NCBI GenBank assembly: GCA_036676495.1
Contig: JAKFCT010000100.1
Span: 1 to 49,916, forward strand
Source of the DNA: Candidatus Sericytochromatia bacterium
Lineage (GTDB): Bacteria; Cyanobacteriota; Sericytochromatia; S15B-MN24; UBA4093
Length of the DNA stretch: 49,916 nt
Direction of reading: 5' to 3'
This document shows, in pieces, positions 46,022 through 49,916 of the stretch. The notes under the pieces were generated by a model, which ran no database searches, was not told where the DNA came from, and saw only the letters and a list, made by a program, of their open reading frames with translations. The number at the start of each line of letters is the position of its first letter. The first letter of the stretch is position 1. A program made the translations under genes and the position numbers.

Positions 46022-48115
46022 TCACGTGCTGGACGGCGTTCCCCGTTCGAGCAAGCTCCTGAGCCGGCCCCTGGCCTGGTTGAGGGCCTCGCGCGCCTCT
46101 GAGGGCGAGAGCCGGGTCGCGTGGATGGCGATCGCCAGCTTCACCGACCCGTCCGCCTGATCGAGCAGCGCTTGGGCCGTGGCCGCGTCGACGCCCGCGA
46201 CCCGCTGGATGATCCGCAGGGCGCGGGCTTGGAGCTTCCGGTTCGAGACCTTCACGTCGACCATCAGGTTGCCGTAGACCTTGCCCAGGAGCACCATGGC
46301 CGTGGTCGAAATCTGGTTGAGCGCGAGCTTGGTGGCCGTCCCCGCCTTGAGGCGGGTCGAGCCCGTCAGGACCTCGGGCCCTACGATCAAAGGCAGCGGG
46401 TGATCGACGTAGTCCAGGGGAGGCAAGGGGTTGCAGGCGATGAGCGCGGTCGTCGCGCCCGCCCTCTTGGCCGTTTTCAAGGCTCCATGGACGTAGGGAG
46501 TGCCGCCGCTCGCCGCGATCCCCACGACCAGGTCTCGGGGCCCGACGCCGCGCGCCTCCAGGTCCGAGCCCCCGGCCTCGGCATCGTCTTCGGCTCCTTC
46601 GATGGCCTGGGTCAGGGCCTTGGATCCCCCGGCAATCAGCCCCTGGAACCATTCCGGAGGAGCCGAGAAGGTCGGCGGAATCTCGGACGCATCCAGGACT
46701 CCAAGCCTTCCGCTCGTCCCCGCCCCCACGTAGAAGACCCTCCCTCCCCCGCGAATCGCCTCGGCAGCCGCAATAGCCACCTGGGCCGTCGCCAGGCTCC
46801 CGGCTGCGACCGCTTCGGCGGTTTGGGCATCTTCGGCGCTCATCAGGGCGGTGATTTCGGGGGCCGTGAGCGTGTCGAGACGCTCGCTGAGCGGATTGGG
46901 GGTCTCGGTGACCGGGTGGGGCTCGTCTACCGTCGCGGGTGCCAGCAGCAAACGCTGGAAGTTCGCACCGGGACTGATCTTGCCGAGGAGGACGGGCCGA
47001 TCGGCCCCGGTCGTCTCGGGGAGGTGGTTGTTCGCGCCGAAGACGGCCTGATAGGCGAGCACGGCGAAGGCCACGGCCTCCTTGGCGTCGGCATCGAAGC
47101 CCCGCGCGTCGCTGGGCAGGACCTGAGCCTCGGGAAGGGCTTGCGCGAGCATGGCCATGAGCGTGCGGTTATGGGCACCGCCGCCGCTCACCAGGATCTC
47201 TCCGGGCAGGACGGGCAGAAAGTCGCGGTAGGCGCGGGCGATGCTCCGGGCCGTCAAGGCGGTGGCGGTGGCGATCGCGTCCTCGGGCGACAGGCCCTGT
47301 GCCAAGGCCTCGTCGTAGCGCGCATCCGCGTAGGCCTGACCGAATTCTTCACGTCCGGTGGACTTCGGCGGCTGCGCGGCAAAGTAGGCATGGCGCAGCC
47401 AGGTTTCCAGCAGGCCTTCATGGACGTGGCCCCGGGCGGCGTAGCGGCCCTCGGGGTCGAAGTGCTCGCGGCCTGCGGTGAAGCGCTCGACGAAGCGGTC
47501 GATGACCATGTTGGCGGGGCCGGTGTCGAAGGCGACCGGTGCCTGTCCGGGGACGAGGGCGGTGACGTTGGCGATGCCTCCCAGGTTCTGGAGGGCCACG
47601 GCAGGGGCCGAGCTGCCGAAGAGCAGCTGATCGACGAAGGGCACGAGCGGCGCTCCCTGGCCCCCCGCAGCGACGTCCGCTTTGCGGAAGTCCGAGACGG
47701 TGGTGATGCCCGTGCGGACGGCGATGAGCGAGCCGTCCCCCAGTTGCAAGGTGGAGGGGGCCTCCCCGCTCGGGCGGTGCCATAGCGTCTGGCCGTGCGA
47801 TCCGATCAGATCCGCGCGCCCCCCCGCTTTCGCCAGGACCGCCTCGGCGGCCTCGGCAAAGAACGCGCCTAGCAGGGTGTCGAGTTCGGCCAAGCGGTCG
47901 ATTCGGCTGGTCTCGGGGGCGAGTTGCTCCTGGATGCGCGCGCGGAGCGTGGCGGGCATGGGCAGGGTGAGGAAGGCTTCCAGACGGAGGTCCAGGCCCG
48001 CGGCGCGCGGGGTGAGGGAGACCAGGGCCGCGTCGCAGCCGTCCAGGGAGGTGCCGGACATCAGGCCGATCACGCGCAGGGGACGGCGGTAGGGGGAGTG
48101 ATTAAGGCGTTGCAT
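46022..48115 (-). CDS. anmK-murQ: Fusion of anhydro-N-acetylmuramic acid kinase and MurNAc-6-phosphate etherase
   Basis: GLMSGTSLDG, SHGQT, GGQGAPL, FDTGPAN, KEAVAFA; then GAGTSGRLG, GSTRLKAGTATK, KVYGNLMVDV. Confidence 0.93.
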   Translation of the reverse strand: MQRLNHSPYRRPLRVIGLMSGTSLDGCDAALVSLTPRAAGLDLRLEAFLTLPMPATLRARIQEQLAPETSRIDRLAELDTLLGAFFAEAAEAVLAKAGGRADLIGSHGQTLWHRPSGEAPSTLQLGDGSLIAVRTGITTVSDFRKADVAAGGQGAPLVPFVDQLLFGSSAPAVALQNLGGIANVTALVPGQAPVAFDTGPANMVIDRFVERFTAGREHFDPEGRYAARGHVHEGLLETWLRHAYFAAQPPKSTGREEFGQAYADARYDEALAQGLSPEDAIATATALTARSIARAYRDFLPVLPGEILVSGGGAHNRTLMAMLAQALPEAQVLPSDARGFDADAKEAVAFAVLAYQAVFGANNHLPETTGADRPVLLGKISPGANFQRLLLAPATVDEPHPVTETPNPLSERLDTLTAPEITALMSAEDAQTAEAVAAGSLATAQVAIAAAEAIRGGGRVFYVGAGTSGRLGVLDASEIPPTFSAPPEWFQGLIAGGSKALTQAIEGAEDDAEAGGSDLEARGVGPRDLVVGIAASGGTPYVHGALKTAKRAGATTALIACNPLPPLDYVDHPLPLIVGPEVLTGSTRLKAGTATKLALNQISTTAMVLLGKVYGNLMVDVKVSNRKLQARALRIIQRVAGVDAATAQALLDQADGSVKLAIAIHATRLSPSEAREALNQARGRLRSLLERGTPSST

Positions 48116-48212
48116 GCCTCGAGTGTACTCCCGGATCGGCCGAGGCTCAAGCGCGTTTCCCCGGGTTGCTTGCGTTCGCGACTATTTTTCGCTTTGAACT
48201 CCAGTTCCGAGG

Positions 48213-48239
48213 TTAAGACCGCTATAATAAGTTTAAGAC
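48213..48239 (+). promoter_or_regulatory. Consensus -10 (TATAAT 48223-48228) flanked by TTAAGAC direct repeats
   Basis: TTAAGAC at 48213 and 48233. Confidence 0.6.
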
Positions 48240-49547
48240 GTTCGAGCTTGCCGCTCGAGCAGGTTTCGTCTCGGAAGGATCGACGTGCCGCAAACCATCA
48301 CGGTGGAGCTCTTCGCTCCGACGCTCGCCAAGCAGGAGACCTTCCGCCAGATGCAGGCGGAATTCAATCGGCTGGCCAATGAGCTGGCGGACGCCTCCTT
48401 GGGCGCCCTGAGCGATCAGGCCTCCGAGATGCTGGAGTGGATGGTGCCGACCGCCTGGCATGGCTCCCTGTACCGGATGGTGCAAGGCCGCCTGAAGACC
48501 ATGGCCATCCGGGGCGAAGGCGCCCGCTTGGCGCGCTTCAAGTCGCACCACCCGGTGGTCTTCGATCCGGCTGCCTGGCAACTGAGCGCGGTCGACGGCA
48601 CCTGGAAGCTCACGATCCCGGTCTTCGGACGGACCGTCTCGGTGCCGATCCTGGTGCCGCCCAGCCAACTGAGCCGTTTGAGCCGCATGCTGGAGGCGGG
48701 GACGCCGCTCGAGGGGCGCCTCTACCAAAAGAAAGGCCGCTGGTACTTTGCGGCCACCTACCTCAACCGTGCCGGAAAGGCCGATGGCAGCCGCCACTGG
48801 GCGTCCTACCGCCCGGTCGGGGTGGATCTCGGGCAACGCATGCTGGCCGTCGCAGTCGACCCCGTGCGCAATCGCCGGATGTTCCTCTCCGGCAAGGAAT
48901 CCCTTTACCATCGCAAGCGCTACGAGCGGATCCTCAAGCGCCTGCGCAAGGCCGGGACCCCGGCTGCACGTCGTGCGGCCAAGCAGGTCGAGGCCAAGTA
49001 TGCACGTTTCCTCGAACACCGCGATCGCCGCGTGGCCAATGCCATCGTCCGGTTCGCGTTGCCGCCCTCCGGGGCTTTGGCCGGCATGCCGCTAACCGCG
49101 CGGCTGGCCAGGCGCGTGGTGATCAAGTTCGAGGACTTCCAAACGGCTCCGTCCACCGCGGAGGTCGCCTCCTACCGTCGCATTCAAGGCCTGGTGGCCC
49201 GTCGAGCAGAGCTCGCGGGTCTCCCGGTCGTGGCGGTCAGTCGGCATGAGACCTCCCAGCGGTGCGCGCAGTGCGGAGTCGTTCAAGAGGGCAATCGCAA
49301 GGGCGGGCGTTATGCCTGCGCTTGCGGCTATCGGTCGCACGCCGATCTCAACGCGGCGCGCAACCTCGCCCAAACGGCGATCCAGTCCGAAGGGATTGGG
49401 ATCGTGCCTGCCGGGTATGAGCCCGGCAGCCAGGCCGTCGGCACGGCTGTATCTCAAGCGGTCCATTGGCTCAAGGGAACATCGGACCACCTGAGAAGCG
49501 CTTTGGCGCATGCCACCCCGCAAATTCCTCCATCCCTTGCAGTTCAA
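48237..49547 (+). mobile_element. Putative non-autonomous IS200/IS605 (IS1341-like, tnpB-only) element or domesticated remnant; boundaries inferred
   Basis: TTTAA then a hairpin at the left; tnpB; structured 3-prime region ending GTTCAA; no tnpA. Confidence 0.45.
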
Positions 49548-49916
49548 ACGCAACTCACACATATGGAGGTAATTCAAATGGCTAGCATCGTTAAGGATCT
49601 CACCGACACCAGCACGAAGTTCGTGACCGGGAGCCTCGACAACCTCAAGACCTACGTGGACCGGACCAGCGACGAGCTGGGCAAGGTCGACGTGGTCGGC
49701 GTGACCCGCCGGGTGCTCGACACCGCCATCGACAACACCAAAGCGGTGGTGAAGATGGCCGCCGAGCCCAACGGCCTCGACTTCTTCGGCAAGGCCAAGG
49801 CCGTCGCCGATGGCTCGCTCGAGGCCGCCAAGGAGGTTGTGAATACCATTTCGGAAGAGGGTAAGAAGACCGATTTCTTCGGGATGGCGACCCGCATGAC
49901 GATGGATTCGCTCTCG
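48285..49916 (+). CDS. tnpB: TnpB-family RNA-guided nuclease fused in frame to a helical repeat protein (at least 544 codons, open at the window end)
   Basis: Manual translation from GTG 48285 (AAGGA RBS): VGVDLG (D181), IKFED (E283), TSQRCAQC...CAC, HADLNAARNL (D354); no stop codon to 49916. Confidence 0.88.
   Translation, partial: MPQTITVELFAPTLAKQETFRQMQAEFNRLANELADASLGALSDQASEMLEWMVPTAWHGSLYRMVQGRLKTMAIRGEGARLARFKSHHPVVFDPAAWQLSAVDGTWKLTIPVFGRTVSVPILVPPSQLSRLSRMLEAGTPLEGRLYQKKGRWYFAATYLNRAGKADGSRHWASYRPVGVDLGQRMLAVAVDPVRNRRMFLSGKESLYHRKRYERILKRLRKAGTPAARRAAKQVEAKYARFLEHRDRRVANAIVRFALPPSGALAGMPLTARLARRVVIKFEDFQTAPSTAEVASYRRIQGLVARRAELAGLPVVAVSRHETSQRCAQCGVVQEGNRKGGRYACACGYRSHADLNAARNLAQTAIQSEGIGIVPAGYEPGSQAVGTAVSQAVHWLKGTSDHLRSALAHATPQIPPSLAVQTQLTHMEVIQMASIVKDLTDTSTKFVTGSLDNLKTYVDRTSDELGKVDVVGVTRRVLDTAIDNTKAVVKMAAEPNGLDFFGKAKAVADGSLEAAKEVVNTISEEGKKTDFFGMATRMTMDSLS
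49390..49567 (+). ncRNA. Candidate omegaRNA-like scaffold plus guide
   Basis: Closing stem AAGGGAT/ATCCCTT encloses several hairpins; followed by GTTCAA; lies at the 3-prime end of the tnpB domain. Confidence 0.4.
49578..49916 (+). CDS. Amphipathic 30-31-aa helical repeat protein (phasin/apolipoprotein-like), partial; internal start in the tnpB frame
   Basis: GGAGGT RBS 7 nt before ATG; strong codon bias resumes; repeats begin DLTD, DVVG, DFFG, DFFG. Confidence 0.75.
   Translation, partial: MASIVKDLTDTSTKFVTGSLDNLKTYVDRTSDELGKVDVVGVTRRVLDTAIDNTKAVVKMAAEPNGLDFFGKAKAVADGSLEAAKEVVNTISEEGKKTDFFGMATRMTMDSLS

Follow-up and report, generated by a model that had tools for sequence, protein, structure and literature searches.

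The window analysed here is one whole contig of 49,916 nt (JAKFCT010000100.1) from a Candidatus Sericytochromatia bacterium (GenBank assembly GCA_036676495.1, here G000; 4.1 Mb in 106 contigs). Near its 3' end a single plus-strand frame, which we call the fusion gene, runs from a TnpB/Cas12f-like domain through about 200 nt constrained as RNA into a helical module with its own Shine-Dalgarno (SD) sequence and ATG (Table 1). The open reading frame (ORF) starts with GTG at 48285 and stays open over 544 codons to the last nucleotide, 49916; an initial annotation of this stretch had ended a solo TnpB at 49380, but no in-frame stop occurs there and the frame continues into a conserved module of 166 aa. 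Another contig of the assembly, C103, opens with the same 123 nt with which the window ends (49794-49916), from which we conclude that the two contigs abut and that nothing of the gene is missing from the genome: a TAG on C103 (283-285) ends the frame, the whole product measures 597 aa, and 3' of this stop come a terminator-like hairpin and then a T run. The contig break itself falls within the fusion gene.

The first 431 residues, used as a query, retrieved 27 proteins. The 23 best of these (E 1e-275 to 4e-64, 38-97% identity, 530-637 aa) cover 76-100% of this query of TnpB part and linker; the other four are ordinary TnpBs of 259-425 aa, 28-39% identical over 16-72% of the query. The alignment resolves three parts, a TnpB-like part (aa 1-365), a linker of ~66 codons (aa 366-431) and a C-terminal helical module of 166 aa, and this one architecture recurs in 23/23 close homologues and in every long-enough locus of two Sericytochromatia families. 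We denote families f1-f4 and genera g1-g7, f1 being the family of the window, with loci from four genera. Among 40 related genomes the TnpB query matched 9/9 of f1 and 6/8 of f4, with one or two matches per genome at a single locus and open frames of 524-692 aa; the exception, G001, adds weak matches (E 3e-8 or weaker) to unrelated copies elsewhere. We regard the fusion architecture as well supported; the function we infer.

Table 1. Features of the fusion-gene locus (window positions unless a contig is named).
Feature	Position	Strand	Basis or remark
AnmK kinase + SIS (MurQ-like) fusion, 697 aa	46022-48115	-	divergent neighbour; Pfam AnmK E 2.6e-112, GKRP_SIS_N, GKRP-like_C
TATAAT, -10-like box ~57 nt upstream of GTG	48223-48228	+	putative promoter
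Fusion gene, first 544 of 597 codons	48285-49916	+	rest on G000:C103:1-285; homologues 530-637 aa
TnpB/Cas12f-like domain, aa 1-365	48285-49379	+	PF07282, AsCas12f matches, invariant triad, dN/dS 0.13-0.46
RuvC-I D181; RuvC-II E283; RuvC-III D354	48825-48827; 49131-49133; 49344-49346	+	
Insertion before RuvC-II, aa 259-277, LPPSGALAGMPLTARLARR	49059-49115	+	specific to window-like group
Zinc finger CxxC...CxC (C327, C330, C345, C347)	49263-49325	+	invariant 30/30
Structured omegaRNA-like element inside the ORF	49374-49540	+	RNAalifold, covariance model R1 (166 bits)
RNA helices P1; P2; P3; P4; P5	49378-49404; 49408-49429; 49433-49448; 49453-49495; 49498-49509		P3 invariant
Possible pseudoknot, GGCA with UGCC	49440-43 with 49511-14	+	
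Possible anti-SD CCUCCAU (49527-33) pairing AUGGAGG (49563-69)	49527-49569	+	putative; includes SD GGAGG 49565-69
Invariant CCCUUG, then variable guide-position stretch	CCCUUG 49534-39	+	between anti-SD and SD
Helical C-module, first 113 of 166 codons	49578-49916	+	own ATG 8 nt after GGAGG

The three acidic residues of the RuvC triad (D-E-D) and the four Cys of the zinc finger, all recognised in the initial annotation, are present and invariant in 30/30 aligned relatives. The profile search proposed there was borne out in part: PF07282 (Cas12f1-like TNB) matches aa 297-361 at 57.3 bits against a cut-off of 26.3, but OrfB_IS605 (E 0.14, 12.8 bits against 30.5) and NCBIfam guided_TnpB (76.4 bits against 100) stay below theirs, scores that point to a divergent member of the TnpB family. 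The PADLOC models Cas12u3 and Cas12f match at ~1e-23. AsCas12f is the best solved relative by sequence (phmmer against PDB, E 5e-12) and, in the structural comparison that had also been suggested, the Foldseek top match (E 9e-18, probability 1.0), with the ISFba1 and ISDra2 TnpBs at 6e-11 to 1e-7; the TM-scores are low, at 0.26-0.39. The underlying AlphaFold2 model has predicted local distance difference test scores (pLDDT) of 70-94 over most of aa 1-365 and low confidence at 264-274.

The initial annotation had placed the telling feature of this protein in a remodelled lid and RuvC-II region, quoting LPPSGALAGMPLTARLARR (aa 259-277) and TAPSTAEVASYRRIQGLVARRAELAG, both of which are present as written. 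The lid is indeed short, with 44 residues from the RuvC-II Glu to the first zinc-finger Cys against 48 in AsCas12f (an alignment count), but the difference is small and lies within the range of 38-62 across the 30 relatives, so that the lid is normal for its clade. The insertion before RuvC-II is likewise real, at 19 aa; it measures 11-21 aa in the 12 of 30 sequences most like the window's (85-93% identical to P0001) and 6 residues in the other 18, and it includes the stretch of low model confidence. By the alignment, the insertion is a loop of variable length found in the window-like group alone, and neither it nor the lid length sets the window protein apart from its clade.

At the other end of the frame, the module start M432 (M-A-S or M-T-T) is invariant, as is a GGAG 7-9 nt upstream. 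With a profile of the C-module, a single copy is detected in each searched genome of the order (f1 9/9, f4 8/8, f2 1/1, f3 8/8; in G000 and G002 as two pieces across a contig break), and among 374 other genomes of the phylum none except for one match at E 9e-5. The f3 genomes have the module by itself, in open frames of 179-238 aa; one f3 frame of 541 aa is coincidental and without TnpB features. A hidden Markov model search of 1.84 billion representative proteins yielded 17 members: five full-length fused proteins (532-613 aa), the fused P0052 (396 aa) without the N-terminal part, nine modules alone (160-206 aa) and two fragments. Some of these module-only entries may be internal-start calls of fused genes, and gene callers do sometimes call the module separately, at 166-171 aa.

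The C-module has no family match in Pfam, NCBIfam, PHROGs or PADLOC. Its model, predicted at low confidence, consists of four long helices and a tail with a conserved ...VTRVEIE..., and a complex prediction with two copies (score 0.00, controls not folded) speaks neither for nor against self-association. A phasin identity is not supported by Pfam, where the module has no Phasin_2 or polyhydroxyalkanoate-granule match; one distant relative matches at E 0.057. The neighbours of the stand-alone f3 modules (an RlmL-type methyltransferase, RibD, an ABC permease and LpxB) gave no functional hint.

Upstream of the GTG, (C/T)GCTATAAT or TGTTATAAT aligns in the 10 f1 loci with upstream sequence (four genera), one of them reading TATACT; both this -10-like TATAAT and the Shine-Dalgarno before the start codon are conserved in f1. 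A simple sigma-70 scan that required a -35 box gave no match at TATAAT 48223-48228 and no promoter before 49388. For CRISPR arrays, 10-20 kb were scanned at five loci (in the window ~10 kb on the upstream side of the gene, in four related loci both sides), and two-copy chance repeats were the only candidates.

The linker, its RNA and the ribosome-binding site

In a codon alignment of 15 genome loci (Nei-Gojobori), the ratio of nonsynonymous to synonymous substitution rates (dN/dS) is 0.13-0.46 in the TnpB part and 0.07-0.29 in the C-module, and 0.6-2.4 in the linker in many pairs. Between species within one genus (g1, g7) the synonymous rate (dS) of the TnpB part is 0.47-0.8, and in the same pairs that of the linker is 0.05-0.2; the three codon positions of the linker vary equally (.418/.429/.455), and a sliding window places the low synonymous change between ~aa 350 and ~aa 455. 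For an RNA alignment made with MAFFT without reference to a structure, RNAalifold predicts 47 pairs, and compensatory changes occur in 26 of them. Standard pairs fill 93.9% of cells against 77.3 +/- 0.9% in shuffles (0 of 500 as high), pairing falls to 35-40% when partners are slid by 1-3 columns, and helix P2 covaries at 8/8 pairs with zero broken cells. Conserved G-U pairs indicate that the plus strand is the folded strand. Judged by these patterns of substitution, the linker evolves as a structured RNA and not as a peptide, and an AlphaFold2 pLDDT of ~30-35 suggests that in the protein it would form a disordered tether.

The first ~20 codons of the module (49578-49650) show the least synonymous change of any stretch (proportion of synonymous differences, pS, 0.10-0.11), which means that the constrained nucleotide block reaches beyond the module start codon. 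A GGAG...CUCU pairing predicted there is invariant across loci and hence carries no covariation signal.

The linker is at the same time kept open. Through the linker the TnpB frame is free of stops in 15/15 loci, while the other two contain 19 and 15, and the six linker lengths found in the genome loci (75-87 codons) are all in register with the module, a pattern that we read as selection for read-through translation.

A covariance model of 167 positions built from the 15 loci (R1) recovers the element outside its training set in G009 (110 bits), G014 (100 bits) and G010 (56 bits). Across 47 genomes of the class it makes one strong match per genome in f1 (9/9), f4 (7/8, the locus of the eighth being interrupted by a contig end) and f2 (1/1), finds nothing better than E 3e-4 elsewhere in these genomes, and has no match at 8/8 f3 loci with a stand-alone module. 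An Rfam scan of 47900-49916 with E up to 10 returned two chance-level matches only. The RNA, ~165-190 nt long, starts ~20 nt after the RuvC-III motif on the coding strand; TnpB omegaRNAs occupy just this position, immediately after RuvC-III on the coding strand. As the RNA is present with the TnpB part and absent upstream of the stand-alone f3 modules, we infer that 49374-49540 is an omegaRNA-like scaffold.

Between the invariant CCCUU(G/A) and the Shine-Dalgarno lie 24-40 nt that vary between genera and stand where a TnpB guide would; they are no more than the 5' untranslated region (UTR) of the module. A target search of G000, by blastn-short with 49380-49660 and by seed scans with the 45 nt after CCCTTG, found no second match beyond chance, the best remote ones being a single exact match of 12 nt, or 14-16 nt with 1-2 mismatches. 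Patterns of 20 nt with <=3 mismatches were scanned in five g2 and g3 genomes and returned the own locus in four (those of g2, and G004 and G007 of g3) and nothing further beyond the control: G004, G006 and G007 matched at their own locus only, G003 gave one 3-mismatch match at the level of the reversed-pattern control, and G009 (g3), with no match at all, is uninformative. These scans leave guides shorter than ~14 nt possible.

The scaffold end may also bear on translation of the module. In f1, CCUCCA(U/A) just 5' of CCCUUG is complementary to (A/U)UGGAGG, with pairing at 7/7 positions in g1, 7/7 in g2 with one compensatory change, and 6/7 in g3 and g4; three f4 loci pair CCUUGC with GCAAGG instead (6/6). 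Taken as a weak test, this comparison suggests a way to sequester the ribosome-binding site, through pairing with the 3' end of the scaffold.

About one fifth of sampled words of 48100-49916 occurred in 19 further runs, 6 of them RNA, from 15 studies in all, and we compared four RNA runs from four studies as assembled contigs from related strains. Their contigs start at 49388 in two studies (745 and 747 nt) and at 49419 and ~49425 in the two others, in each case at a hairpin tip (49388 in P1, 49419-25 in P2); they span the whole module, the longest reaching ~216 nt beyond the window end, at depths of 7-78. The TnpB part appears in one RNA run only, at a depth of 3-6 against 78, which offers a weak hint of two products; the lack of contig cover over the TnpB region in the other three of four runs is no evidence of silence. 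AmaTnpB uses its RuvC site to trim its own mRNA on the 5' flank of the omegaRNA; the 3' flank stays uncut, and padding there is tolerated (PMC10278001). The RNA contig ends would fit such processing by analogy.

One 1.6-kb metagenome contig (L078, 1-795) carries ~795 nt of unrelated A+T-rich DNA joined at ~49422, in the P2 loop. The junction lies near the starts of two RNA contigs; either a chimera formed at a genuine RNA end or a fault of the assembly may explain it.

Inheritance and loss of the nuclease motifs

The fusion gene is the sole TNB-domain gene in the 4.1-Mb assembly, which answers the question of copy number that the initial annotation had raised. Its report of no adjacent tnpA also holds, the sole Y1_Tnp match in the assembly lying unlinked on contig C48, and the divergent anmK-murQ it had named upstream is by Pfam a fusion of AnmK with a MurQ-like SIS protein. 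A divergent anmK-murQ orthologue lies upstream in 11/11 loci compared, a conservation that indicates vertical inheritance of the fusion gene; no anmK-murQ lies within 1.5 kb of the module at the loci of f2 and f3. In the same genome pairs, the identities of the TnpB part and of anmK-murQ are 83 against 75%, 53-58 against 58-60% and 29-33 against 50%, so that by sequence comparison the one tracks the other. Within part of one order of Candidatus Sericytochromatia, a group of non-photosynthetic relatives of the cyanobacteria, the gene is fixed as a single copy and passed on vertically.

Two members have lost the nuclease motifs. In G014 (L074, also L034; 1674-3540), a congener of three genomes with an intact D-E-D, the RuvC-I Asp and RuvC-II Glu are replaced by Ala and the RuvC-III Asp by Val, and all four Cys are lost, a 12-aa in-frame deletion taking out the first CxxC; its 621-aa frame is open, its RNA and module are intact, and dN/dS is 0.20-0.35 against its congeners, a sign of purifying selection. 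In G010 (f2; L035 960-1990, minus strand) the TnpB is degenerate, with no GVDLG and with the zinc finger and RuvC-III region deleted, and the RNA, the module and the TnpB remnant share one 342-aa frame. Since both lost the nuclease motifs and kept the frame, DNA cleavage seems dispensable in at least these two lineages, and it is probably not the selected activity. P0052, a related metagenome protein, has its motifs intact.

A same-genus genome carries a DDE_Tnp_1 transposase gene ~1.2 kb downstream of the fusion gene (L013 12023-13972, minus strand), so that on this side it does not share the synteny of other genera. An R3H/ATPase gene (L014 14049-16958, minus strand; SpoIIIAA-like, PTPase and R3H) lies downstream in a related genome; it holds an intein with a LAGLIDADG domain that the orthologue in L017 does not have, and adjoins a gene for an LdpA-like Fe-S protein. 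L017 (7075-7309; G016) bears a 117-nt tandem duplication, 98% identical, in or beside anmK-murQ.

A proposed domesticated TnpB and the alternatives

We propose, with somewhat more belief than doubt, that the locus is a domesticated fusion of TnpB, omegaRNA and host gene, with two products and RNA-anchored control of the module. An IS200/IS605-type tnpB with its omegaRNA would have come to lie directly upstream of the gene for a lineage-specific helical protein of ~166 aa, the tnpB then losing its mobility and its stop codon. Two products would follow, a rare full-length protein from the upstream promoter and an abundant free module from the internal start. The structured RNA would be the omegaRNA scaffold bound by the TnpB domain, and the RuvC site would cut the long transcript at the 5' edge of the scaffold, as in AmaTnpB, to leave an RNA composed of scaffold, guide-position stretch and module mRNA. 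The TnpB moiety would then sit on the 5' leader of the module beside the ribosome-binding site and control translation or stability of the module mRNA, and the fusion would tie the few TnpB-RNA particles to whatever the free module assembles on. Only tentatively do we go further and suggest that 49374-49540 is linker, omegaRNA scaffold and module leader in one, and that TnpB cuts its own transcript in cis, stays on it and gates a ribosome-binding site ~25 nt away; this refinement may well be wrong.

Several observations weigh against our proposal. The triad is intact in 30/30 other members, which argues that in most lineages catalysis still matters; the kept triad is assigned to RNA processing purely by analogy. 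The RNA contig ends may be assembly breaks at the edge of a block conserved across species, and conservation of the frame could have another cause, such as the cost of terminating inside the leader. No guide target was identified in the genomes scanned (G000, g2 and g3). The module modelled alone reaches an AlphaFold2 pLDDT of 48.6, a poor model, and its phasin-labelled language-model neighbours, with Atlas feature scores of 0.88-0.89, below the 0.9 mark, provide no more than a lead.

A stranded selfish element is a rather improbable alternative. Here an immobilised homing nuclease would cut TnpB-free alleles, recognised by a transposon-associated motif (TAM) and the module 5' UTR, and be copied in by recombination, the fusion to a host gene merely making its loss costly. 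Homing is a known role of TnpB (PMC10690162) and counts in favour of this view, as do the intact D-E-D triad and zinc finger of the 30/30 aligned members, a guide-position stretch that is just host flank and, in three genera, matches nowhere else in the genome, and the decay seen in G010 and G014, which fits a homing cycle after fixation. Yet the nuclease has lasted long for one that is purely selfish, being present across two families in conserved synteny, as a single copy whose rates track those of a housekeeping neighbour; even in comparisons with the nuclease-dead G014, dN/dS remains 0.20-0.35; and homing needs no selection for an open, in-register linker.

No better placed is an RNA-guided DNA binder like the TldRs, which would repress transcription at a remote promoter or at its own locus, immediately past the scaffold-coding DNA, with attenuated cleavage, and to which we likewise assign a small probability. 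The scaffold ends in the invariant CCUU(G/A) directly 5' of the guide position, so that the locus could carry a TAM-like motif; CCUU(G/A) may resemble the T-rich protospacer-adjacent motifs of Cas12f. The family does include nuclease-dead members, and the gene adjoins a non-transposon gene, as TldRs do (PMC10705468). However, the 20 nt after the scaffold have no remote match with <=3 mismatches in G000, the g2 and g3 scans are no better, and the window protein keeps its full triad, so that self-targeting would be lethal unless cleavage were blocked.

That the locus is just two ordinary neighbour genes, joined in frame by chance in G+C-rich DNA, with an RNA that is a 5'-UTR riboregulator of the module unrelated to TnpB, strikes us as very unlikely. 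The module does have its own SD and ATG, stands alone in f3, is sometimes a separate gene call of 166-171 aa and may have an SD-sequestering helix, but this view leaves unexplained the stop-free TnpB frame (15/15 loci, against 19 and 15 stops in the other frames) and the register held over six linker lengths, as well as an RNA that begins ~20 nt after RuvC-III, where omegaRNAs lie, and was not found upstream of the eight stand-alone f3 genes. The first proposal for this stretch, an ordinary solo TnpB of 365 aa whose remodelled lid and RuvC-II region alter guide or target engagement, can point to a lid 4 residues shorter than that of AsCas12f, replaced aromatic and YK positions and the insertion before RuvC-II, yet we give it scarcely any credence, as the ORF does not end at 49380, the lid falls within the clade range of 38-62 and the insertion is confined to the window-like group.

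The locus both resembles and differs from several known systems. With the IS200/IS605 TnpBs (ISDra2, ISFba1 and AmaTnpB) the window protein shares the D-E-D triad, the TNB zinc finger and the Foldseek fold (8iaz 6e-11, 8h1j 6e-10), and in the locus, as in theirs, an RNA of ~165-190 nt begins on the same strand shortly after RuvC-III and gives way to flanking sequence where a guide would lie. It differs from them in being single-copy, without an adjacent tnpA and with synteny fixed across two families, in having no stop, so that the RNA-coding stretch leads in frame into a host protein, and in its distance from the nearest unfused TnpBs (28-39% identity over 16-72% of the query). Cas12f of type V-F (AsCas12f; PDB 8j3r, 8j12, 7wju and 8dzj) provides the best sequence and fold match among solved structures and a similar lid length, but no CRISPR array lies near the five loci, and the RNA is a single fixed scaffold and not a crRNA/tracrRNA pair. 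Nested in-frame genes, such as phage protease-scaffold pairs, ClpB and IF2, make two forms from one frame, a long one and, by way of an internal SD and ATG, an abundant short one that holds the C-terminal part; here, in contrast, the spacer also encodes a conserved structured RNA, and both products are predicted.

Like the TldRs (PMC10705468; bioRxiv 10.64898/2026.09.22.753285), this is a TnpB domesticated beside a non-transposon gene with its putative scaffold kept, and G014 and G010 display a like stepwise loss of RuvC and zinc-finger motifs. The initial annotation had nevertheless set the protein apart from nuclease-dead TldRs, and with good reason: triad and zinc finger are intact, the gene is non-mobile and single-copy, 30/30 aligned relatives keep the triad as the window protein does, and no remote promoter target was found in the genomes scanned. 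The window gene is moreover a translational fusion, and the terms 'fused' and 'in-frame' are absent from both TldR texts searched.

Our survey of the published literature found no in-frame fusion of TnpB to a host gene and no omegaRNA in a linker, although the supplements of the TldR papers (clade lists) could name the clade. To our knowledge, the domesticated TnpBs described so far are CRISPR effectors or nuclease-dead transcription factors of the TldR or dCas12f kind. The kind of event, TnpB domestication, is thus already known; a scaffold inside the ORF that joins a nuclease to a host protein we did not find in print. Nuclease-active variants in non-mobile contexts are named as still to explore in the discussion of PMC10705468, and the present family is a case of a TnpB with intact nuclease motifs in a non-mobile context, made useful by its order-level vertical inheritance and by natural catalytically dead derivatives for comparison. 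Two questions become testable with it, namely how one stretch can be an omegaRNA and also serve as coding sequence and mRNA leader, and why a RuvC site is retained where there is no DNA target. The Cas12f-like protein that it supplies is compact, at 365 aa, and a defined RNA of ~170 nt is its putative partner. If the more tentative refinement of our proposal is true, TnpB would have been exapted as an mRNA-anchored post-transcriptional regulator, and the fusion without a stop would tether the nascent nuclease to the very RNA it must capture.

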